Virus record (IMG/VR): IMGVR_UViG_3300028048_000043
From: a virus
Taxonomy: Duplodnaviria; Heunggongvirae; Uroviricota; Caudoviricetes
Direction: 5' to 3' (one strand)
Length of the DNA: 64,000 bases
Position numbers and translations under genes: made by a program. Of the stretch, positions 6,904 through 42,426 are shown one piece after another (the stretch's first letter is position 1; each line of letters opens with the position of its first letter). A model generated the notes under the pieces. That model worked only from the letters and a program-made list of their open reading frames with translations, did not search any database and was not told where the DNA came from.

Positions 6904-9900
6904 ATGAACGTTAGAAAAAGTGACGGAAGCATTGAAGAATACAGCGCCGAAAAGGTTAAGAAAGGAATACGTGAAGCATTTGAAGCGGTTGGTGAAGTTT
7001 GCGATGACGCTGTTCTTTCTTTAATAGAAGGAAACCTTTATAATTATGAGAATATATCATCTTCAGAGATTGAGAGACAGGTTTCTGAATCTTTAATGTC
7101 AATAAACAAAAAAGCAGCTCGAAAATATCTAGATAAAGCGAGCGAGAATAAAGTATTAAAGAAAAATGATGATTTCGTAAGAAATTATATCGCCGCTTCA
7201 AATGCGGCAACAGGATCTAAATATGACTCAAACGCAAACGTATCAAACAAAAATATTGTTACGCTTGGACAGGAGCTGCACAAAGGCGAGAATATTCAAC
7301 AGAATAGATATATTATGCAAAACAAGATCAAGCAACTCTATTCCAAAAAACTTGCTGATCAGTATATCTATGATTTGGAACACCATATCATATATAGACA
7401 TGATGAGTCCGGAACACCAGGATATCCATACTGTGTTGCTATTACAATGTACCCGTTCTTAACCGATGGATTAACGAAACTCGGTGGATTATCTATTGCA
7501 CCGACAGACTTGAAGAGTTATTGTGGCGAGTTTATTAATCTTGTTTACTCTGTTTCTTCACAATTTATGGGTGCAGTTGCGACACCAGAGTTCCTTCTAT
7601 ATATGGATTACTTCATAAGAAAGGATTACGGTGAAGACTATCTCAATCATCTAGATGATGTAGTTGAAAACAATAGAAAACACAGAACTCTTGAACAGGT
7701 TATCGAGAATTCGTTTCAGCAAGTTGTTCATTCCATGAATATGCCAGCCGGAAATAGGGGGTATCAGACTGTTTTCTGGAATGTTAGTTATTTTGACAGA
7801 CCTTACTTTGAAGGTGTGTTCGGAGATTTTGTGTTTCCTGACGGAACAAAGCCAAAATGGGAAACGTTATCATGGTTGCAGAAAAAGTTTATGAATTGGT
7901 TCTGTAGTGAAAGAGACAAGTATGCTGTTATGACATTCCCTGTTGAAACGTTAGCTATGCTTACGGACGGCGGTGATGGTTTTGTAGATCAAGAATATGC
8001 TGACTTCGCGGCAGAAATGTGGTCAAAAGGACATAGTTTCTTTTGTTATTTGTCAGATAGTCCGGATAGTCTTAGCAGTTGTTGCTTCAGTAAAAACCAA
8101 AAAGTTTTATGGAAATCATCAACAAGTGGCGTTAATTTAACAACTTTAGAAGAACTACATAATTTAAACTGGGAACCATATAAGAAAAATCTTAGAATTT
8201 TCCACAATGGTAGCTGGGTAAGTGGAAAATCAATAAAATTACCAAACAGAAAGATGTATAAAGTTGTTACTGAAAACAACAAAGAAATATACATGACCGA
8301 TAATCATATTAATGTTACAATTGATGGTGAAAAACAGACATCAGAATTAACAGTAAATGATTATTTAATGTTTAATACAATGGCATTAAATGCAGTACCA
8401 GAAAATGATGAACATTTAACATATGAACAAGGTTTTGCTGTTGGTGCTTTTCTTGGTGACGGGTCTTTTGGCAGAAGATTTGACGATGGAGTTATATATG
8501 ATGTAAATTTCTCACAAAACAAAAACAAATATGAGAAATGTATGTCAATGATAGATGCTGCTAACAGTCAATTAGGAGGCGAAACTGTTTCTTGCTTGAG
8601 TTCTGTTTATAACAATGTATATCCAGTTAGAATTTGTTCAAAAAAATTAGTGGCATTTATACAAAGATGGACAAATTGGAAAGAAGGAACATTGTATTAT
8701 AATAAAGAATTGAACCTTGATTGTTTGTTACAGTCTATTGAATTTAGAAAAGGCATTCTTGATGGGTGGTATAATACAGATGGTGGAAATTCTAACAGGT
8801 GCTACACAACAAGTCAAAAACTTGCAGAATGTATGGAGGCTTTAATAACCTCTCTTGGTATGCAATCAATAATTGACATTTCTGATAGAACAGACGAAAA
8901 AGTTGTTATAAGGGGTAAAGAGTATAATAGAAATTATCCATTATATTGTGTTAGATGGTATGAGCAAGCAAATCATAGGACAAACAAAGATACTGAACGT
9001 TCATGGGCAAAGAAAAATAATTCAATTTATTTCAAGATAAAATCAATAGAAGAAGTTGAATATTTAGATGATGTTTATTGTATTGAATGTAAGAACGAAA
9101 AAGAGCCTTACTTCACTCTTCCTTGCGGTCTAATTACTCATAATTGCCGTTTGCGCAACGCCTTAAAAGATAATGCAGAAGACGATCTTAATCATACAAC
9201 GCATCAGTTTTCTATGGGAACCGCGTCCGTTGCTACTGGTTCAAAGTGCGTTATGACAATAGATCTTAATCGTGCGGTTCAGGATGCGACCAGAAAATAT
9301 TTCAAAGATGTAGTTGGAACAGAACTCAACCCAGGAGAAAAACTTCATAATGTTTCAGAAAAAGAAAGAGAGGGAATATATCTTTATATCTGCGATTATA
9401 TCAATGAGCTTACGGAGAGAGTTCATAAATATCTGACATCATTCAATGCAATCATAAAGGATTTCTTTAATGCTAATATGTTGACTGTGTATTCGGCAGG
9501 GTTCATTGATATGAGGAAGCAGTATTTGACTGTCGGCGTGAACGGATTGACGGACGCCGCCGAGTTCATGGGCATTGAAATAACACCAAATGATGAATAT
9601 GAGAAGTTCTCAGGGATGATTCTCGAAACAATAAACAAGTGTAATAAGAGAGACCGCACCAGAGATTGTATGTTTAACACTGAATTCATCCCAGGTGAAA
9701 ACGTTTCATACAAGCATTATGAATGGGACAAGAAAGACGGGTATTATGTTTCTCCAAAACACAATATGTATAGTTCATATTTCTATAATCCTGAGGATCC
9801 AAATATAAGTATATTAGATAAGTTTGTTCTTCATGGAAGAAGATTCTCTTCTATGTGTGATGGAGGAATGGCACTTCATGCAAATCAGAAAGAAATTGGA

Positions 9901-10152
9901 ACAAAAGAGCAATATATGAAACTTCTTAAATTTGCAGCGAAGAACGGCACAAGCTATTTTACATTTAATGTGATGGGAACGGTTTGTGAAGAGGACGGTT
10001 GCGGATTTATAAGCAAACATACTTTTGATCATTGTCCAAAATGCGGAAGTAAAAATATCAGTCACACTACAAGGATCATTGGGTATCTTAAAAAGATCAG
10101 GGATTTTAGTGAGCCAAGACAAGAAGAAGCAGCAAAAAGAGTGTATAACTAA
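6904..10152 (+). CDS. nrdD: class III (anaerobic) ribonucleotide reductase with intein
   Basis: N-terminal ATP-cone-like start, PYCVA, SLSSC|CRL finger loop (interrupted by an intein), C-terminal CxxxxC...CPKC zinc site and TRIIGYL glycyl-radical motif. Confidence 0.95.
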   Translation: MNVRKSDGSIEEYSAEKVKKGIREAFEAVGEVCDDAVLSLIEGNLYNYENISSSEIERQVSESLMSINKKAARKYLDKASENKVLKKNDDFVRNYIAASNAATGSKYDSNANVSNKNIVTLGQELHKGENIQQNRYIMQNKIKQLYSKKLADQYIYDLEHHIIYRHDESGTPGYPYCVAITMYPFLTDGLTKLGGLSIAPTDLKSYCGEFINLVYSVSSQFMGAVATPEFLLYMDYFIRKDYGEDYLNHLDDVVENNRKHRTLEQVIENSFQQVVHSMNMPAGNRGYQTVFWNVSYFDRPYFEGVFGDFVFPDGTKPKWETLSWLQKKFMNWFCSERDKYAVMTFPVETLAMLTDGGDGFVDQEYADFAAEMWSKGHSFFCYLSDSPDSLSSCCFSKNQKVLWKSSTSGVNLTTLEELHNLNWEPYKKNLRIFHNGSWVSGKSIKLPNRKMYKVVTENNKEIYMTDNHINVTIDGEKQTSELTVNDYLMFNTMALNAVPENDEHLTYEQGFAVGAFLGDGSFGRRFDDGVIYDVNFSQNKNKYEKCMSMIDAANSQLGGETVSCLSSVYNNVYPVRICSKKLVAFIQRWTNWKEGTLYYNKELNLDCLLQSIEFRKGILDGWYNTDGGNSNRCYTTSQKLAECMEALITSLGMQSIIDISDRTDEKVVIRGKEYNRNYPLYCVRWYEQANHRTNKDTERSWAKKNNSIYFKIKSIEEVEYLDDVYCIECKNEKEPYFTLPCGLITHNCRLRNALKDNAEDDLNHTTHQFSMGTASVATGSKCVMTIDLNRAVQDATRKYFKDVVGTELNPGEKLHNVSEKEREGIYLYICDYINELTERVHKYLTSFNAIIKDFFNANMLTVYSAGFIDMRKQYLTVGVNGLTDAAEFMGIEITPNDEYEKFSGMILETINKCNKRDRTRDCMFNTEFIPGENVSYKHYEWDKKDGYYVSPKHNMYSSYFYNPEDPNISILDKFVLHGRRFSSMCDGGMALHANQKEIGTKEQYMKLLKFAAKNGTSYFTFNVMGTVCEEDGCGFISKHTFDHCPKCGSKNISHTTRIIGYLKKIRDFSEPRQEEAAKRVYN
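8083..9144 (+). mobile_element. intein with LAGLIDADG homing endonuclease in nrdD (354 aa)
   Basis: Starts CFSKNQKV, block B MTDNH, two LAGLIDADG-like helices (GAFLGDGSF, GWYNTDGG), ends LITHN followed by Cys+1. Removal restores SLSSCCRL. Confidence 0.95.
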
Positions 10153-35773: not shown

Positions 35774-36765
35774 TAAAAAGTGTAAGTTTTCCTAACGATG
35801 GTAAAGGGTATGTCTACGCACACCCTGATGAGCCTGTTCGTCCAAACAGAAGAGACCGCGAATTCTATGACAAAACTCCAGAAGAGTATAAGAAAGGACT
35901 GAACAAATATTACAAGGAGCATAAAAAGTGGGAAAAGGAAAAGGATAATTATGTGTGTCCTTGTGCTAAAAATCTTATCGGAAAAAAATTTGATTTTGAA
36001 GACCATAAAGTAAATGTCATTTTCGGTAGGAACGGATCCGGAAAATCCACAATTATTCGTCAGATAGGAGGAACGGCGCTTATAGAGAAATCAGGCTTCA
36101 CTTCGATCCACGAACCGATTGATTTTGGTTGGGGATCGGAGAAGAACGTAGAATATCTTGTAAATAAGTACAAAATGAATTCGTCATCCGTTGAGTGGGA
36201 TGGATCACCTGTTTATCTTTATAATCCAGATGTCTTGACAACGTTTGGCAGTCATTTTGGAGAAATGGCTAACACTCTTTTTAACGGGGACACTTCGTCA
36301 GAGATAACATATATATTTAGTAGCAGTATGGTATCCAGCGGTCAACGTTCGGCATTAATGTTGAACAGAATAATGGGTGTTTGTGAAATGGTTTCTTCGA
36401 TGAAGCAACTCGTATCCTATGCTCAGACACAGCTAGATAAAGGAAGAATGAATGATACATGGATGACCACCTATCGTTGTCAGCTGGATTATCTTAAGGG
36501 GTTTAGAAACTTTGATAAAGAAGGTCCGACGACACTCGTTTTTGATGAGATAGATAAAAGTCTAGATATCCCTACAGTAATATTCCTTTATACGGAATTC
36601 TTTCCTCGTTTGGTGAAGAAGTATGGAACTCAAGTAATACTTGTTTCTCATAATCCGTTAATTTTATCAAAAAACATCATCGAGCAGCCAGAATTCAATC
36701 TGATATCTGTTGATGATGAATATACGGCAAATGTAAGAAAAACATTAAACGGAATATCATTTTAA
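35770..36765 (+). CDS. ABC/SMC-superfamily ATPase (no coiled coil or membrane partner seen)
   Basis: Walker A GRNGSGKS, signature SSGQ, Walker B VFDEID, H-loop VSHN. Confidence 0.85.
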   Translation: MIKSVSFPNDGKGYVYAHPDEPVRPNRRDREFYDKTPEEYKKGLNKYYKEHKKWEKEKDNYVCPCAKNLIGKKFDFEDHKVNVIFGRNGSGKSTIIRQIGGTALIEKSGFTSIHEPIDFGWGSEKNVEYLVNKYKMNSSSVEWDGSPVYLYNPDVLTTFGSHFGEMANTLFNGDTSSEITYIFSSSMVSSGQRSALMLNRIMGVCEMVSSMKQLVSYAQTQLDKGRMNDTWMTTYRCQLDYLKGFRNFDKEGPTTLVFDEIDKSLDIPTVIFLYTEFFPRLVKKYGTQVILVSHNPLILSKNIIEQPEFNLISVDDEYTANVRKTLNGISF

Positions 36766-37622
36766 TGTCAGTTCATTATAAAACACCGTTAAGATATCCA
36801 GGAGGAAAAAGCAAGGTTGCGGGTCAGCTCGTTTCCTTGTTTCCTTCATTTTCTGAGTATAGAGAGCCTTTTCTTGGTGGAGGGTCCGTTTTTCTTGAAA
36901 CAAAGTCAATATATCCGGACAAAGTTTATAAGGTAAACGATCTGTATTATGATCTGTTTTGCTTCTGGAAAACAGTTCAGAAGCAAACTGAGCATTTGAT
37001 TTACAGGATAAAAGATATGTATCCAAGAAATAGCTGTGATAAAGATTACGGAAAAGCTTTGTATGAAGAATGCATTAAGGAATTGTCCGGGGACTGTTCT
37101 GAAATCGATCGCGCTGTGTATTTCTTTATTATCAATAGGATTACGTTTTCCGGAACATCTTTGAGCGGAGGATATTCCCAGGAGTCGTTTGAAAAAAGAT
37201 TCACGGAATCTTCAATAGAGCGTATACGATACTGTTCCTGGGCGTTTAGAAAAGGAAATGTTGATGTTTCCTGCGAAGATTATTCGGTGCTATTATCTGA
37301 GCCTGGCGACGATGTGTTCATATTTTTAGATCCTCCTTATTATTCTGCGACGGATTCCGCGTTGTATGGAAAGAACGGCGAACTTCATAAGGGATTTGAC
37401 CACGAGAGATTTAGGGAATGTGTTGGAAACTGTAAGCACAAATGGATGATTACATACGATGACTGCGAATATATCAGGGATTTGTATAAGGATTTCAATA
37501 TAAGACCTTTCGAATTTTCTTACGGAATGAGAAATGTTACAGAGGATGCAGATATGAAAGGTAAAGAATTGATAATAACAAATTACGATATAAAAGAACA
37601 AAAAGAAACAACATTATTTTAA
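36765..37622 (+). CDS. dam: DNA adenine methyltransferase (Dam/D12 class)
   Basis: PLRYPGGKS, EPFLGGGSV (SAM-binding), VNDL, FLDPPY (catalytic). Confidence 0.93.
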   Translation: MSVHYKTPLRYPGGKSKVAGQLVSLFPSFSEYREPFLGGGSVFLETKSIYPDKVYKVNDLYYDLFCFWKTVQKQTEHLIYRIKDMYPRNSCDKDYGKALYEECIKELSGDCSEIDRAVYFFIINRITFSGTSLSGGYSQESFEKRFTESSIERIRYCSWAFRKGNVDVSCEDYSVLLSEPGDDVFIFLDPPYYSATDSALYGKNGELHKGFDHERFRECVGNCKHKWMITYDDCEYIRDLYKDFNIRPFEFSYGMRNVTEDADMKGKELIITNYDIKEQKETTLF

Positions 37623-38903
37623 ATGGCACTAATAGAAGGATACAAATATCTTGATAAGGATAAACTTGGGTTTGATCCTGAGACATGTCCGATAGAGGAG
37701 CTTGAAAAACAGATAGAGAAGTATAAAGGTGAAGAAGATTACTGGAACACAATGCAGCTCAGCGCTAAAACCTTTATTAACTCTGTTTATGGCGTATTCG
37801 GAACAAAATACTTCAACCTGGCAAACACTGATATAGCTGAATCAATCACTTTGCAAGGACAGCACCTTATTAAATATTCGGTTGTTCAGATTAACAAGTA
37901 TTTTAAGGAACAGTGGCATTTGGATGTTGAGGGGCATAAGAGAATTGCGTCTTACATGAAGGATAAATTTCCTGATTTTGATGTTGAAGCGTTCCTTAAA
38001 ATGGCATCTACTAATAAATTGAATTTCGACACTTTACAAGTATATGGGGATAGTGTGACTGGGGACACAGTTATAACATCATCAAACGGAGAACTTAAAA
38101 TAAAAGATATGTTTGATTCTGTTTGTGATTCTGATTCTCCGGACAAGATAAGGGTTAATTATAATGGTTATGTTTTTTGTGCAGATAAGTCTGGAAATCT
38201 TCACTTTCGTCCAATTGATTATATAATGAGACATAAAACAAATAAAAGAATATATCGCGTTTTTGTTAATGATAAAAGTGTGGACGTTACCGAAGACCAT
38301 TCTATAATGATTAGGGGTAAAGATGGAATATTACACGAAAAATCTCCAAAAGATTGTAAAATTGGAGACACTGTTTGTTTATTCTTTGAATCTGAAAACG
38401 GAATAGGTGTAAATGATGGGTTCATTAAAGATATAAAAATACTCTGTGAATCTTTTGATGATTATGTTTATGACATTTCCGTGCGCTGTTTAGAAGACGA
38501 AGATTGTCACAATTTCTTCGCTAACGGTATTCTTGTTCATAATACTGATTCTGTGTCTCATGATACAGTCGTTAGAACAAAAAAACATAAATCTGGAATA
38601 AGAATAAGCGATTTTTATGATGAAAATTCAAATAATTTGTCAGAAACTACAAAAGCTGGACACGAGTCAGTGAAAACAAACGATATGGTTTTAAACGCTA
38701 CAGAGTGTAAAGCTGATTATTTTCCTGTAAAAAGAATAATTAGACATAAAGTTAAAAAGAAAAAATGGAAAATTGTTACAGCAAGCGGAAAATCAATAAT
38801 TTGTACAGAAGATCATTCGATAATAGTATTTAGAGATGGGAAAAGATTAGCCATATCGCCTAAAGAAATTATTCCTGGAGATAAAATAATAGAATGTTTG
38901 TAA
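37623..38903 (+). CDS. polB: family B DNA polymerase, fragment 1: motif B to YGD, mini-intein, TD, then N-half of a split intein
   Basis: AKTFINSVYG (motif B KxxxNSxYG), ITLQGQ, QVYGD|SVTGDT...LVHN|TD|SVSHDT...TEDHS...ECL-stop. Confidence 0.93.
   Translation: MALIEGYKYLDKDKLGFDPETCPIEELEKQIEKYKGEEDYWNTMQLSAKTFINSVYGVFGTKYFNLANTDIAESITLQGQHLIKYSVVQINKYFKEQWHLDVEGHKRIASYMKDKFPDFDVEAFLKMASTNKLNFDTLQVYGDSVTGDTVITSSNGELKIKDMFDSVCDSDSPDKIRVNYNGYVFCADKSGNLHFRPIDYIMRHKTNKRIYRVFVNDKSVDVTEDHSIMIRGKDGILHEKSPKDCKIGDTVCLFFESENGIGVNDGFIKDIKILCESFDDYVYDISVRCLEDEDCHNFFANGILVHNTDSVSHDTVVRTKKHKSGIRISDFYDENSNNLSETTKAGHESVKTNDMVLNATECKADYFPVKRIIRHKVKKKKWKIVTASGKSIICTEDHSIIVFRDGKRLAISPKEIIPGDKIIECL
38052..38543 (+). 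mobile_element. contiguous mini-intein (164 aa) at the YGD|TDS site of polB
   Basis: Ser1 (SVTGDT), block B VTEDHS, block F VYDISV, block G FFANGILVHN, Thr+1; no endonuclease domain. Confidence 0.93.
38550..38900 (+). mobile_element. split intein, N-terminal half (117 aa) at the YGDTD|S site
   Basis: Ser1 (SVSHDT), block B CTEDHS, SPKEIIPGDKI, then a stop codon where endonucleases normally insert. Confidence 0.9.
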
Positions 38904-38906
38904 AAC

Positions 38907-38976
38907 TTCAAAGTTATGGTGATTTTTATTTTTTCGCCATAAATTTGAAATAAATATTAAAACAAACTTATTTATT
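38907..38976 (+). promoter_or_regulatory. hairpins and late-type promoter ahead of the endonuclease gene
   Basis: ttcaaagttatggtga (38907-38922) pairs with tcgccataaatttgaa (38934-38949). ATAAATA lies at 38950-38956. aataaata (38949-38956) is complementary to tatttatt (38969-38976) immediately before the ATG. Confidence 0.65.
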
Positions 38977-40158
38977 ATGCCTGTTGTAAATTTAGGAAAA
39001 ACAATGGATCCTGAGCAAAAAAGGATATGTGATGAATTTAATAAGAATAAAACATTGTCTGAATTTTCTCGATTATGTGACATGAATCCAAAATATTCAA
39101 ATAGACAAAAGTGTAGAATATGCGGAAATGATATTTTTTATAATAATGTTTTGTTCGCTGGAGCGTATCAAGAATACCCAGAAATTAAACAAGGAACAAG
39201 TTTTCTAACTGTTAAAAAAATTTGTGGTAATACGTATCAACTATCTGTGTGTGAACATTGTATGGAGGAATGTGTTGATGGATATAAAGATGTTAAAAAC
39301 AGATCAAGAGTTTTTAATATGCCAAACAGATTTACACAATTTGCGTTCAATATACCAGATAGTGTTATAAACGAGAAAAAGACAGAACTTTGTGTTAGAA
39401 GCGAGGAGTCTTACATAAAAAAATTTGGAGAAGATGAAGGAAAGAAAAGATGGGACGCATACGTTGAAAAACAAAAATACACAAAATCTTTTGAATATTG
39501 GAGCAAAAAAAATAATGCATCAATAGAAGATTATGAGCAGTATAATAAAAGTAGAGCATGTACATTGAATAATATGATTTCCAGACATGGGGAAGAGGAA
39601 GGTCGTAAACGTTGGGAAGAATATGTTAAAAAACAAAGATACACAACATCAAAAGATTATTTTATAAAGGAATACGGAAAGGAGGATGGAGAGAAAAAAT
39701 ATAAATCTTTTATAGAAGCAAGGGATAAACAGGGACCGTATTCAAATATCTCTCAGGAGTTTTTTAAAGAATTGTCATCTATAAAACAATTTTCTAATCA
39801 TAGAATATTATATGCTACAAATGGAAAAGAGGAACAAATTTTAACAGGAAGCGGACGATTATATTATCTTGATTATTATGATTATGATTTGAAGATATGT
39901 ATAGAATTCAATGGAAATAAGTTTCATCCAAAGCCTGGCGAATATAAAAAAGATGATATTTTTATAAATCCCTTTGGTGAAGAAAACATAGTTGGGGTGC
40001 TATGGGAAAAAGAAGAACTTCGAAAAGAAGATTTATTAAATGAATTTGGAATACGAACAATAATTGTTTGGGAAGATGAATATAAAAAAAACAAGAAGAA
40101 GTGCATCTGTGAAACTGTTGATAAAATTTTAGAAATTTGTAAAAACAATATAATATGA
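38977..40158 (+). CDS. free-standing putative homing endonuclease, Vsr/DUF559-like PD-(D/E)xK C-terminal domain with N-terminal CxxC and three helical repeats
   Basis: SQEFF...YLDYY...CIEFNGNKFH...RTIIVWEDE; CRIC and CEHC; repeats YIKKFGEDEGKKRW / MISRHGEEEGRKRW / FIKEYGKEDGEKKY; lies between the two intein halves. Confidence 0.8.
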   Translation: MPVVNLGKTMDPEQKRICDEFNKNKTLSEFSRLCDMNPKYSNRQKCRICGNDIFYNNVLFAGAYQEYPEIKQGTSFLTVKKICGNTYQLSVCEHCMEECVDGYKDVKNRSRVFNMPNRFTQFAFNIPDSVINEKKTELCVRSEESYIKKFGEDEGKKRWDAYVEKQKYTKSFEYWSKKNNASIEDYEQYNKSRACTLNNMISRHGEEEGRKRWEEYVKKQRYTTSKDYFIKEYGKEDGEKKYKSFIEARDKQGPYSNISQEFFKELSSIKQFSNHRILYATNGKEEQILTGSGRLYYLDYYDYDLKICIEFNGNKFHPKPGEYKKDDIFINPFGEENIVGVLWEKEELRKEDLLNEFGIRTIIVWEDEYKKNKKKCICETVDKILEICKNNII

Positions 40159-41147
40159 TGGAATTAAAATTGGAAGATATAGTATCTTGTGAAGAGATCG
40201 GAGAGTTTGATGACGAATATGTATATGATATAGAAATGGATGACGATTCTCATACATTTTTTGCAAACGATATACTTGTTCACAACTCTGCTTATATTAC
40301 TATGGATCCACTTATCGATATGTATAAAATCCCTAGCGAGCAGCAAACAGAATTTTCACTCGCTGTGCATAAATGTGTTCTTGATAAATTCCTTGATGAC
40401 AGATTCGAAGATTATGCACGGGCGTTCAACTGTGAAAAGAATCTTGAAAAGTTCGAGCTTGAGAAGATTTCTAGAACAATTATAATGCTTTCCAAGAAGA
40501 ACTACATTTGTGATGTTGCTTGGGCGGATCCTGATATGTATTATGAACCGTTGTCCCACATAACTTATACAGGTTATGATGTCGTCAAGGGTACTGTCAC
40601 AAATTATTGCAGAAAGGAGATGAAGTATTTTACCAATTTCGTTATGGATAAACTGAACAATGGTCGTAAACCTACAATGGGAGAGATTGTTCAGGTGCTT
40701 CGTGAGATAAAGAAAAGATTCTCTATGCAGTCTCCAAACGACATATCCAAGACTGTAAATGTTTCTAACTATGAGAACTTCGTAAAGGATGATAAAAGTA
40801 CACCAATTGAGTATTTTGAACTCTATACATCTGATGGAAAGAAAGCGCCTCTTCCTATTCATGTCAGAGCGGCCGCAACATATAACAACATACTTTACAA
40901 TAAAGGTAAGGAATATTTAAGTAAATATGATACTCTGAAATCAAACGATAAAGTTAGGTTTTATTATATAAATGACGATGACGTGTTCGGGTTTATTCCT
41001 GACGATTATCCTATAGAGTTTGCACCGCCCGTTGACATTGATGTTCAGTTTGATAAGATGCTTCTATCTCCGTTAAACAGAATCGTTGAAGCTATAGGAT
41101 ACAAATCCGTTCCACCAAGTCTGACATATAACGTAAGTTTGTTTTGA
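40155..41147 (+). CDS. polB: family B DNA polymerase, fragment 2: C-half of the split intein (44 aa, 40155-40286) plus palm/thumb C-extein
   Basis: MMELK...VYDIEM...FFANDILVHN|SAYI; then FELEKI, SKKNY, GYDVVKG, PIHVRAA, KVRFYY polB C-terminal motifs; ATGA overlap with the endonuclease stop. Confidence 0.93.
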   Translation: MMELKLEDIVSCEEIGEFDDEYVYDIEMDDDSHTFFANDILVHNSAYITMDPLIDMYKIPSEQQTEFSLAVHKCVLDKFLDDRFEDYARAFNCEKNLEKFELEKISRTIIMLSKKNYICDVAWADPDMYYEPLSHITYTGYDVVKGTVTNYCRKEMKYFTNFVMDKLNNGRKPTMGEIVQVLREIKKRFSMQSPNDISKTVNVSNYENFVKDDKSTPIEYFELYTSDGKKAPLPIHVRAAATYNNILYNKGKEYLSKYDTLKSNDKVRFYYINDDDVFGFIPDDYPIEFAPPVDIDVQFDKMLLSPLNRIVEAIGYKSVPPSLTYNVSLF

Positions 41148-41578
41148 TGAAATTCTGGACATCATATTACGGAGCGATGAAAAATTTTACTGATGACTAC
41201 CTTTGCGTAGCCATTAGTCTTTATGTACCTATCATAGAAAAAGAAAATTTTAAAGTAGCTAGAGAGTTTGCGCCGGATGCAGATTTGCTAAAAGATTTCA
41301 AATCCGGAAAAGAGACCCAGGATGGATACAAAAGGAGATATGTGGAACATCTTTTTAAAATGTTCACTCCAGAAAAATTGAAACGTTACATAAAAGAGAT
41401 AGAAGAAAAATATAGTGATAAATACGACAATATGGTTTTCTTGTGTTATGAGAAACCTGGAGATTTCTGTCATCGCCACATCTTTGCAAAAATTTTAGAA
41501 ATCGTTTGCGGAATAGAATGTAAAGAAATCGATATCACTAAGAATAACGAAAAAACAAAAGAAATCGCATTATTTTGA
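41144..41578 (+). CDS. DUF488-like protein
   Basis: FWTSYY, VAIS, FLCYEKPGDFCHRH (LCxE...CHR) pattern. Confidence 0.65.
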   Translation: MMKFWTSYYGAMKNFTDDYLCVAISLYVPIIEKENFKVAREFAPDADLLKDFKSGKETQDGYKRRYVEHLFKMFTPEKLKRYIKEIEEKYSDKYDNMVFLCYEKPGDFCHRHIFAKILEIVCGIECKEIDITKNNEKTKEIALF

Positions 41579-42426
41579 ACATGGAAAATCTTGAAAATAT
41601 AAATCATCTTATAGTTCCGGACGTTCACGGAAGAACATTTTGGAAAGAACCAGTAAAGGAAGTTTTAGAGAAAACAAACGCTAAAATTGTATTCCTTGGG
41701 GATTACTTGGATCCGTATGGATATGAAGGAATAACTTCTAAAGATGCCATAGTGGTATTTAAAGAAATCATAGAGTTGAAAAAACTTTATAAGGATAGGA
41801 TTATTCTATTGATAGGAAATCATGATGTTTGCTATATAGGTGAAACTGAATCCGGAGGACGATATGATAGGTGGAACGCCCCAGAGATAAGGGATCTTTT
41901 TATTAACAACTGGGATTTGTTCGAATTCATTTATTTTGATGAAGTTGCAGGTAAGAAATACTTGTTCAGTCATGCTGGTTTCAATCCCGAGTGGCTTGAT
42001 ATTCGTCGAGAGTTTCTCGGCATCAAGGATGATGATGAACCGTCTCTTGATTTCGTTCTAGGGTATGATTGGAAGTTAAATTTCTTTAAGGATCAAATGA
42101 GATTGGTTTCATATCTTGAAGACGTTTCTTTTTGGAGATGGGGTCCAGCTCGTGCATCGAGCTTTGTGTGGTGTGATGTTAATGAACATCTTTTTGAACA
42201 TAAACATCTTGAAGGTTGTGTACAGATATTCGGTCACACACAGCAGGCTAAAGTTCCTGTTAGGGAAAAGGATAATCTATACTGCCTTGACGTAAGGCGT
42301 TGTTTTATTCTAGATAATGATGGCGTAGTTAGAGAGTTGGATGGAAGAGAGCTTGAAGATAACAGCGACGCCATAATGGAAAAAGAAAGGAAGAATGCTG
42401 AAAACGCAATGGCTTTTCTCTTTTAA
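41575..42426 (+). CDS. calcineurin-like metallophosphoesterase
   Basis: PDVHG, LGDYLD, GNHD, SHAG, FGHT motifs. Confidence 0.9.
   Translation: MNMENLENINHLIVPDVHGRTFWKEPVKEVLEKTNAKIVFLGDYLDPYGYEGITSKDAIVVFKEIIELKKLYKDRIILLIGNHDVCYIGETESGGRYDRWNAPEIRDLFINNWDLFEFIYFDEVAGKKYLFSHAGFNPEWLDIRREFLGIKDDDEPSLDFVLGYDWKLNFFKDQMRLVSYLEDVSFWRWGPARASSFVWCDVNEHLFEHKHLEGCVQIFGHTQQAKVPVREKDNLYCLDVRRCFILDNDGVVRELDGRELEDNSDAIMEKERKNAENAMAFLF

Follow-up and report, generated by a model that had tools for sequence, protein, structure and literature searches.

Several phages encode their T4-type family B DNA polymerase (polB) in pieces with an intein at one of the breaks, and it is with these that we compare a polymerase locus at positions 37623-41147 of a 64,000-nt stretch of viral DNA (the window), taken from the Caudoviricetes record IMGVR_UViG_3300028048_000043. 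In Aeromonas phages Aes123 and Aes508, as in the window, polB is of the divided N-half and C-half type, and the C half is itself broken at DTD/S (the slash marks the insertion point) by a split intein with Ser as its first residue (Ser1) and as the residue that follows it (Ser+1). A gene for a Vsr-like endonuclease with the same KYGxxEG repeats lies between the halves. The translated Aes123 record (JN377899) gives gp43A, which has motif A, gp43B1 ending YIDTD/SVVGDT..., a 'putative VSR endonuclease', and gp43B2 with ...NDILVHN/SVYLN; the separate halves of this PolB1 intein (PDB 9hth) trans-splice in vitro (bioRxiv 10.1101/2025.01.22.634254). Unlike the window locus, however, the Aes123 and Aes508 genes have no second intein, the N side at YIDTD/S being intact, and they belong to phages of proteobacterial hosts with genomes of ~160 kb; their inteins are only ~30-35% identical to those of the window. 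Another split intein of this kind, PolB16, comes from a sheep gut metagenome, and its N-extein is SGDTD (PMC10189870).

The nearest named relatives of the window at the polB locus are Bacteroidota jumbo phages, namely Tenacibaculum phage PTm1 (ORF-236/239/240/241) and the Prevotella Lak megaphages, in which polB is likewise broken at DTD/S by this split intein with its VSR endonuclease. The PTm1 records annotate an 'intein-containing split DNA polymerase precursor' and a 'VSR endonuclease'. The N-terminal part of their split intein (IntN) is 42% identical to that of the window, the motifs of the C-terminal part (IntC) are nearly identical, and the N-terminal polB half is a separate gene. They differ from the window in having this one intein only, and Lak also has an extra 80-aa open reading frame (ORF) before IntC and reads TAG as Gln. 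The same layout, in which IntN and a stop codon are followed by a hairpin, a free-standing Vsr-like endonuclease and IntC, was described for the 'fractured genes' of phage metagenomes (Dassa et al. 2009, PMC2677866). The hosts in that case were gp41, IMPDH, DnaE, NrdA, NrdJ, ligase and terminase, with no family B polymerase, and no adjacent second intein was described.

A second polymerase site, YGD/TDS, is the pol-c site of archaeal, Mimivirus and Nanoarchaeum PolB (PMC549080). The pol-c inteins resemble the first intein of the window (intein 1) in their exact site, Ser1 and Thr+1, but occupy the site alone, and the archaeal and Mimivirus ones carry LAGLIDADG domains. In polB of Salicola phage SCTP-2, a cis mini-intein 35% identical to intein 1 also stands alone, at IIYGD/.../TDSSYF, and Campylobacter phage CC_R7 has a cis mini-intein at DTD/S. 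Closely placed sites are known from other genes. Sites a and c of DnaB are two residues apart, with only b and a reported as filled together (PMC4760082), and the haloarchaeal MCM-a/MCM-d double inteins each have their own nuclease and co-home poorly (PMC10643990). In contrast to both, the window fills two sites that are two residues apart and has a single free-standing nuclease for the pair. The original prediction for this DNA, made from its letters alone, knew of no tandem of a cis and a trans intein with two residues between them, and we too found no paper on two occupied sites two residues apart, in a search of literature that omits most subscription journals, so that a prior description is possible. 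Each element alone is already known; what is new is the combination, in which both sites are occupied to leave a two-residue extein and one intein is of the cis and the other of the trans type.

Two inteins in motif C

The locus consists of ORF1 (37623-38903, 426 aa), ORF2 (38977-40158, 393 aa) and ORF3 (40155-41147, 330 aa), all on the + strand. ORF1 begins with a polB N-extein that ends LQVYGD and continues through intein 1, which reads SVTGDT...FFANGILVHN, and the dipeptide Thr-Asp into IntN of the second intein (intein 2), which reads SVSHDT...GDKIIECL and then stops. ORF3 opens with an IntC head ending HTFFANDILVHN (DILVHN), followed by SAYITMDPLIDMYK. The Thr of the two-residue extein is the +1 nucleophile of intein 1, and the Asp is both the -1 residue of intein 2 and the second Asp of DTD, which in family B polymerases is a metal ligand. 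When the inserts are removed in silico the three exteins give a protein of 143+2+286 = 431 aa in which YGDTDSAY is whole. The original prediction had this parse, from the ORF coordinates and lengths to the 6-nt Thr-Asp extein at 38544-38549 and the roles of its two residues, correct to the base. The features are listed in Table 1.

Table 1. Parts of the tandem-intein polB locus, with coordinates in the window
Feature	Coordinates	Strand	Evidence
polB N-extein, 143 aa; motif B KTFINSVYG, ends YGD	37623..38051	+	PF00136 profile positions 145-248, 37 bits
Intein 1, 164-aa putative cis mini-intein, site YGD/TD (pol-c)	38052..38543	+	Pfam and PDB 9hth/8cpo matches, conserved motifs
Two-residue extein Thr-Asp, codons ACT GAT	38544..38549	+	sequence parse; empty allele YGDTDSAY
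IntN of split intein 2, 117 aa + stop, site DTD/S	38550..38903	+	42% identical to PTm1 IntN; motifs
73-nt spacer with hairpin and ATAAATA box	38904..38976		folding, L003 comparison
Free-standing Vsr-like homing endonuclease gene (ORF2, predicted), 393 aa	38977..40158	+	AlphaFold model, structure alignment
IntC of split intein 2, 44 aa, ends ...YVYDIEMDDDSHTFFANDILVHN	40155..40286	+	Pfam, IntN/IntC complex model
polB C-extein, 286 aa + stop, starts SAYITMDP..., Ser+1; rest of palm and thumb	40287..41147	+	phrog matches; L005 identity

The insertion points are fixed by an intein-free allele. A sister phage contig in IMG/VR (L005) encodes a 423-aa polB C half without insert, identical to protein P0070, which reads LQCYGDTDSAYITMEP (YGDTDSAYITM), and this places intein 1 after YGD and intein 2 after the next two residues, TD, directly before S. 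The predicted spliced product of the window aligns with it from end to end, with 362 of 431 residues (84%) and 77% of nucleotides identical; by parts, the N-extein is 82% identical to P0070 over 133 aligned columns and the C-extein 87% identical to L005. The ratio of non-synonymous to synonymous substitution rates (dN/dS) of the exteins against this empty allele is 0.045, with dS saturated. Motif B is present, and motif C, YGDTDS, is restored once the inserts are removed. Beyond the match in ORF1, Pfam DNA_pol_B (PF00136) continues at profile positions 265-377 in ORF3, where its score of 16.2 bits is under the cut-off; ORF3 also matches the DNA polymerase families phrog_1918 (E 1e-30) and phrog_262 (E 7e-29). 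To judge by these sequence comparisons, the locus is the C-terminal (gp43B-like) half of a T4-type family B replicative polymerase. That two inteins flank a two-residue extein, as originally predicted, is borne out by the empty allele, by the splicing residues and by homologues in which both inteins are contiguous. The three-ORF tandem-intein anatomy is confirmed, and chance cannot account for it.

Intein 1 has the marks of a class 1 (HINT) intein, with Ser1, TxxH, a terminal His-Asn and Thr+1, a profile score above the cut-off (Pfam Intein_splicing, PF14890, 64.9 bits against 35.8, ORF1 residues 156-307) and precise in-frame insertion relative to L005. Its further motifs are RH (the NX motif), TEDH (block B) and VYDI, and it has no endonuclease domain. 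It matches the Aes123 PolB1 intein (PDB 9hth, E 3.6e-12) and the PolB16 intein (8cpo), and in 48 homologues of it RH, TxDHS, VYDI and HxFFxNxILxHN are conserved to at least 90%. Both inteins of the window have the 'NX' motif in its R/K-His form, which has been reported as particular to inteins with Ser1 (PMC10189870). The original prediction had recognised YGD/TDS as a known polB intein site, which it is, as pol-c. From its residues, intein 1 would be expected to splice in cis. A variant of the usual ending is seen in SCTP-2 (L014, 1501-1989), a cultured phage of 440 kb, where the pol-c mini-intein, not annotated as an intein, ends Lys-Asn in place of His-Asn.

Intein 2 has Ser1, RIIRHK (the NX motif) and TEDHS (block B) in IntN, and blocks F and G, which end in HN and are followed by the +1 nucleophile Ser, in IntC. 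RIIxHKV and TxxHS are conserved in 97 IntN homologues, and YVYD, H, HN and S+1 are invariant in 29 IntC sequences. The 117-aa and 44-aa halves align without loss to the contiguous homologues P0049, P0009 and P0020, and to intein 1. As in fractured genes, IntN ends the upstream ORF and IntC opens the downstream ORF on the same strand, the two making up one full mini-intein. The break is at the canonical endonuclease position, and the Aes123 PolB1 homologue is split at the same site, so that the predicted split of intein 2 around an endonuclease gene holds. The likeness to fractured genes from phage metagenomes that was drawn at the outset is right as to layout but too narrow as to source, since such genes are also annotated in the cultured phages Aes123, Aes508 and PTm1, and trans-splicing of the Aes123 intein has been shown experimentally.

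A model of the IntN/IntC complex scored 0.86, against 0.00 for the best control, a mark reached by 58 of 80 solved complexes and by 2 of 110 mismatched pairs; contact agreement between runs was at least 88%, and the partner had a predicted local distance difference test (pLDDT) value of at least 63. This pass may reflect likeness to solved split inteins. By analogy with Aes123, the two halves would be expected to associate and trans-splice, and one cis and one trans event would then rebuild YGDTDS, as the original prediction proposed and as the empty allele and the Aes123 homologue suggest.

The two inteins of the window are only 33% identical to each other, and in the best tree of 91 inteins all copies of intein 1 stand apart from all copies of intein 2, those of Aes123, PTm1 and Lak included. 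They therefore represent two distinct site-specific lineages, and the possibility that intein 1 is a recent local duplication of intein 2 was rejected on the same grounds.

Between IntN and ORF2, a hairpin at 38893-38958 (-19.2 kcal/mol, z -2.7) starts shortly ahead of the IntN stop codon, and the endonuclease start is preceded by an ATAAATA box at 38950-38956. A similar hairpin and a TAAATAAATA box are found at 11243-11298 in L003, a tandem locus from another sample, though its proteins are only ~50% identical. At the other end of ORF2, the endonuclease stop overlaps the IntC start codon (ATGA). The hairpin and box, whose function is presumptive, recall the hairpins reported upstream of fractured-gene endonucleases.

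ORF2 itself has no Pfam family and no PDB match by sequence. Its AlphaFold model (pLDDT 91.5) has an N-terminal Cys-rich domain, three helical repeats of the YGEEEGxKRW type and a C-terminal Vsr-like (EDxHD-type) nuclease domain, residues 253-393. With the whole model Foldseek gave only weak matches (E at least 0.015), and the fold is clear only upon re-alignment. The C-terminal domain then superimposes on NGO0050 (3hrl) with Z 10.9 and a root-mean-square deviation of 1.8 over 92 aligned residues, on the catalytic domain of the EDxHD homing endonuclease I-Bth0305I (3r3p, PMC3239194) with Z 10.6 and 97/97 aligned, and on Vsr (1cw0) with Z 10.1. Residues E285, D299, E310 and H317 are invariant in 39 ORF2 homologues and may include catalytic residues of the EDxHD type. 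ORF2 also matches the 'VSR endonuclease' of PTm1, and its dN/dS against the homologue in L008, another tandem locus, is ~0.17. On the structural model, ORF2 resembles the Vsr-like (EDxHD) homing endonucleases of fractured genes (PMC2677866, PMC3239194), and it probably cuts intein-free alleles near DTD/S upon co-infection.

Two other genes may be further nucleases of this kind. In PTm1 (L001, 3120-4175), ORF-238, between the N-terminal polB gene and the IntN gene, has a Vsr-like motif (IIFEYHGSYWH) at its end and resembles another free-standing nuclease, placed at the gp43A/B break, which has no intein. The other is a DUF7487 (PF24308) gene at 1307-2116 of L009, from a phage whose two inteins are both contiguous; it is immediately upstream of polB but on the other (-) strand. 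PF24308 is also found in one distant homologue of ORF2, and the L009 gene may be a displaced free-standing nuclease.

Distribution and mobility of the inteins

Relatives were surveyed as the 120 best homologue clusters of ORF1, clustered at 90% identity. The layout of the window, with intein 1, Thr-Asp and split intein 2, is found in 41 of these (P0002, P0006 and P0013, for example), and both inteins are contiguous, with Thr-Asp between them, in 5 (P0009, P0020 and P0030 among them). Intein 1 stands alone in 2 clusters, including P0041. Intein 2 stands alone as a contiguous (cis) intein in 33, such as P0049 and P0066, and as a split intein in 24; 15 have no intein. Thus alleles with no, one and two inteins, which the original prediction had proposed to look for, are all present: the tandem accounts in one form or the other for 46/120 clusters and intein 2 alone, cis or split, for 57/120, and all but two of the 48 intein 1 alleles (46/48) also carry intein 2. 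The tandem, for all that no description of it was found, is not peculiar to the window. Since five alleles have both inteins in cis form, the split of intein 2 is not required.

Tandem loci from other samples (L003, L004 and L008) keep the same gene order, from a Dam methylase through ORF1, the endonuclease and ORF3 onward to the tail sheath, and the arrangement is therefore real and recurrent, and no accident of assembly. A tblastn search of 50,697 deposited phage genomes showed no tandem at its level of sensitivity, and one related contig is labelled as gut metagenome. As far as sequences can tell, the tandem layout is widespread in uncultured jumbo phages. In the Lak megaphages, the split intein and Vsr-like endonuclease of polB were noted at 4605-7843 of L002 (Lak-A1) and in L007, deposited records that carry no annotation.

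The intein states are scattered over the tree of N-exteins, which requires at least 14 changes of state for intein 1 and at least 22 for intein 2. Near-identical exteins differ in content, P0026 being tandem, P0041 having intein 1 only and P0085, P0089 and P0094 being empty, and the nearest neighbour of the window polB on this tree is intein-free. Conversely, exteins that are 9% apart carry copies of intein 1 that are 57% apart. On this comparison the scatter is the pattern of mobile selfish elements. The distances of intein 1 and intein 2 show a moderate correlation (partial r 0.44), which we do not count as proof of co-homing.

A possible composite element and its alternatives

Why should one polymerase gene carry two inteins so close together? 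We consider it highly probable that two different selfish protein-splicing elements have invaded neighbouring positions in motif C of the polB C half, intein 2 being a fractured-gene element. Intein 1 would be excised from the ORF1 product in cis, by means of its Ser1 and terminal Asn and of Thr+1. IntN, at the tail of that product, would then associate with IntC at the front of the ORF3 product, and the pair would be removed by trans-splicing, through Ser1 and Ser+1, to give a 431-aa protein with YGDTDS intact, which would work with a separately encoded exonuclease/motif A half. Either order is chemically possible, but cis before trans is kinetically likely, because intein 1 should be complete once ORF1 has been translated through Thr+1, whereas IntN needs IntC from another protein. 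In a co-infected cell the ORF2 nuclease would cleave intein-free alleles near DTD/S, and intein 1, because it lies only 6 bp from this site, would be copied along with the split-intein cassette. Given that intein 1 has no nuclease of its own, that it is so close to the intein 2 site and that nearly all its alleles also carry intein 2, it is reasonable to infer that it hitch-hikes on the free-standing nuclease of intein 2.

A more tentative proposition, to which we give somewhat less than even weight, is that the tandem as a whole is an undescribed composite mobile element. It would consist of mutually orthogonal Ser1 inteins 6 bp apart, separated by what is possibly the shortest natural extein (Thr-Asp, with the catalytic Asp), with intein 1 hitch-hiking on one nuclease and with a fixed cis-then-trans order that avoids the cross-splicing by which the catalytic Asp would be deleted.

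Four points weigh against the reading preferred above, of two selfish elements spliced out of motif C. The first concerns the rest of the enzyme. The polymerase active site also requires the motif A aspartate, and in PTm1, Aes123 and Lak a gene of its own carries motif A together with the exonuclease domain, in Lak ~226 kb away. No such half was found within the window, either by tblastn with the PTm1 and Lak N halves or as the motif A pattern DxxSLYPS in open frames, and on a 135-kb sister contig, itself a fragment, only the polB C half was matched in searches with PF03104, PF00136 and the PTm1 N half. The original description of an active site assembled from three pieces, while right for motif C, left out the exonuclease/motif A half, a separate gene outside the window. 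Second, two active sites two residues apart may interfere sterically. Third, the activity of the window inteins is extrapolated, since their nearest relatives are only 50% (intein 1) and 59% (IntN) identical to them. Fourth, the patterns used for classification demanded a Ser or Cys start and a His-Asn or His-Gln end, so that the counts of junction residues are partly a matter of construction; the internal motifs are free observations.

Of the other explanations, the one that fares best is compatible with the invasion of motif C by two selfish elements: the inteins might form a conditional switch, holding back assembly of the polymerase active site and thereby setting when replication starts, as the original prediction suggested. 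Both insertions lie within the catalytic motif, so that the polymerase cannot act until both have been spliced out, an ATAAATA box and hairpin precede the endonuclease gene, and conditional splicing has been documented for other proteins of replication and repair. Such gating is nevertheless unsupported, because the enzyme is also used by sister phages that lack inteins: neither the closest extein relative (84% aa identity) nor any of 14 further clusters has one. The states flip between near-identical exteins, which points to selfish gain and loss and not to a conserved regulatory device, and no sensor feature was identified in either intein. We regard the switch as improbable.

Less probable still, and in our view very unlikely, is that a group I intron carrying the endonuclease gene occupies the stretch between the stop codon of IntN and the start of IntC. 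Intein 2 would then be made contiguous by RNA splicing, and cis-splicing would serve for both inteins. Related large phages often have group I introns, in polB as in other genes, one being annotated in gp43B-1 of Aes508 and others in Jug phage genes (PMC12880540), and IntN and IntC do sum to a full mini-intein with nothing missing. Yet no intron or other RNA family (Rfam) was detected in 37000-41600 even at a permissive threshold, nor in the whole window. The reading frames, too, are those of separate proteins: a stop codon closes the IntN ORF, and the endonuclease and IntC each have a start codon, that of IntC being an ATG which overlaps the stop of the endonuclease gene. This stop-gene-start layout is kept in L003 and L008 at 48-61% identity. 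The homologous Aes123 halves, moreover, splice as separate polypeptides in vitro (10.1101/2025.01.22.634254).

There is only a slight chance that the fractured polB is a decaying pseudogene and that another polymerase replicates the phage. The exonuclease/motif A half is absent from the window, and a minimal PolIII alpha-like enzyme is a further possession of this group of jumbo phages (PMC7824862), but the extein dN/dS against the empty allele is as low as stated above, motifs B and C and all the splicing residues are intact, and the same N/C split is found in the cultured phages PTm1 and Aes123 and in Lak genomes. Least credible of all is that the assembly fused two alleles of a mixed population, one with intein 1 and one with intein 2, for, while the exact window protein is known from one contig and mixed alleles do co-exist in nature, the HN-TD-S junction recurs in 46 separate clusters (90% identity) that draw on many independent assemblies, some with dozens of members (P0009, n=63; P0013, n=29, the latter on several contigs).

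If the two inteins do act as proposed, they are a natural case of inteins working two residues apart, with a bearing on the spacing of active sites, on enforced order and on the avoidance of cross-reaction. Orthogonal cysteine-less (Ser1) split inteins are sought for three-segment protein ligation (PMC12707363, PMC10189870), and the tandem family offers dozens of natural intein pairs already adapted to minimal exteins. For the mobility of double inteins, the comparison with the haloarchaeal MCM pair is instructive, in that two nucleases hinder co-homing there, whereas here one free-standing nuclease could move both inteins. For annotation, the tandem explains short polB fragments in many gut jumbo phages.

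Other features of the window

The source contig is 314,739 bp long, and the virus is therefore an uncultured jumbo phage. Its T4-type genes within the window are those for the gp23 capsid protein, prohead protease, gp32, a DnaB-like helicase, SbcCD-like proteins, sheath, large terminase and an intein-bearing NrdD. The NrdD gene (anaerobic ribonucleotide reductase, 6904-10152, +) has a large Cys1/Cys+1 intein at residues ~393-747, whose junctions rebuild ...SLSSC/CRLRNA; at ~355 aa it may include a nuclease domain.

Around the polymerase locus (36765-42426, +), the Dam methylase, the polB C-extein, a DUF488 protein and a metallophosphatase all have C termini in Leu-Phe (TLF, SLF, ALF and FLF), and polB homologues without an intein end in SLF or LW. 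The terminal Leu-Phe may be a shared C-terminal docking motif.

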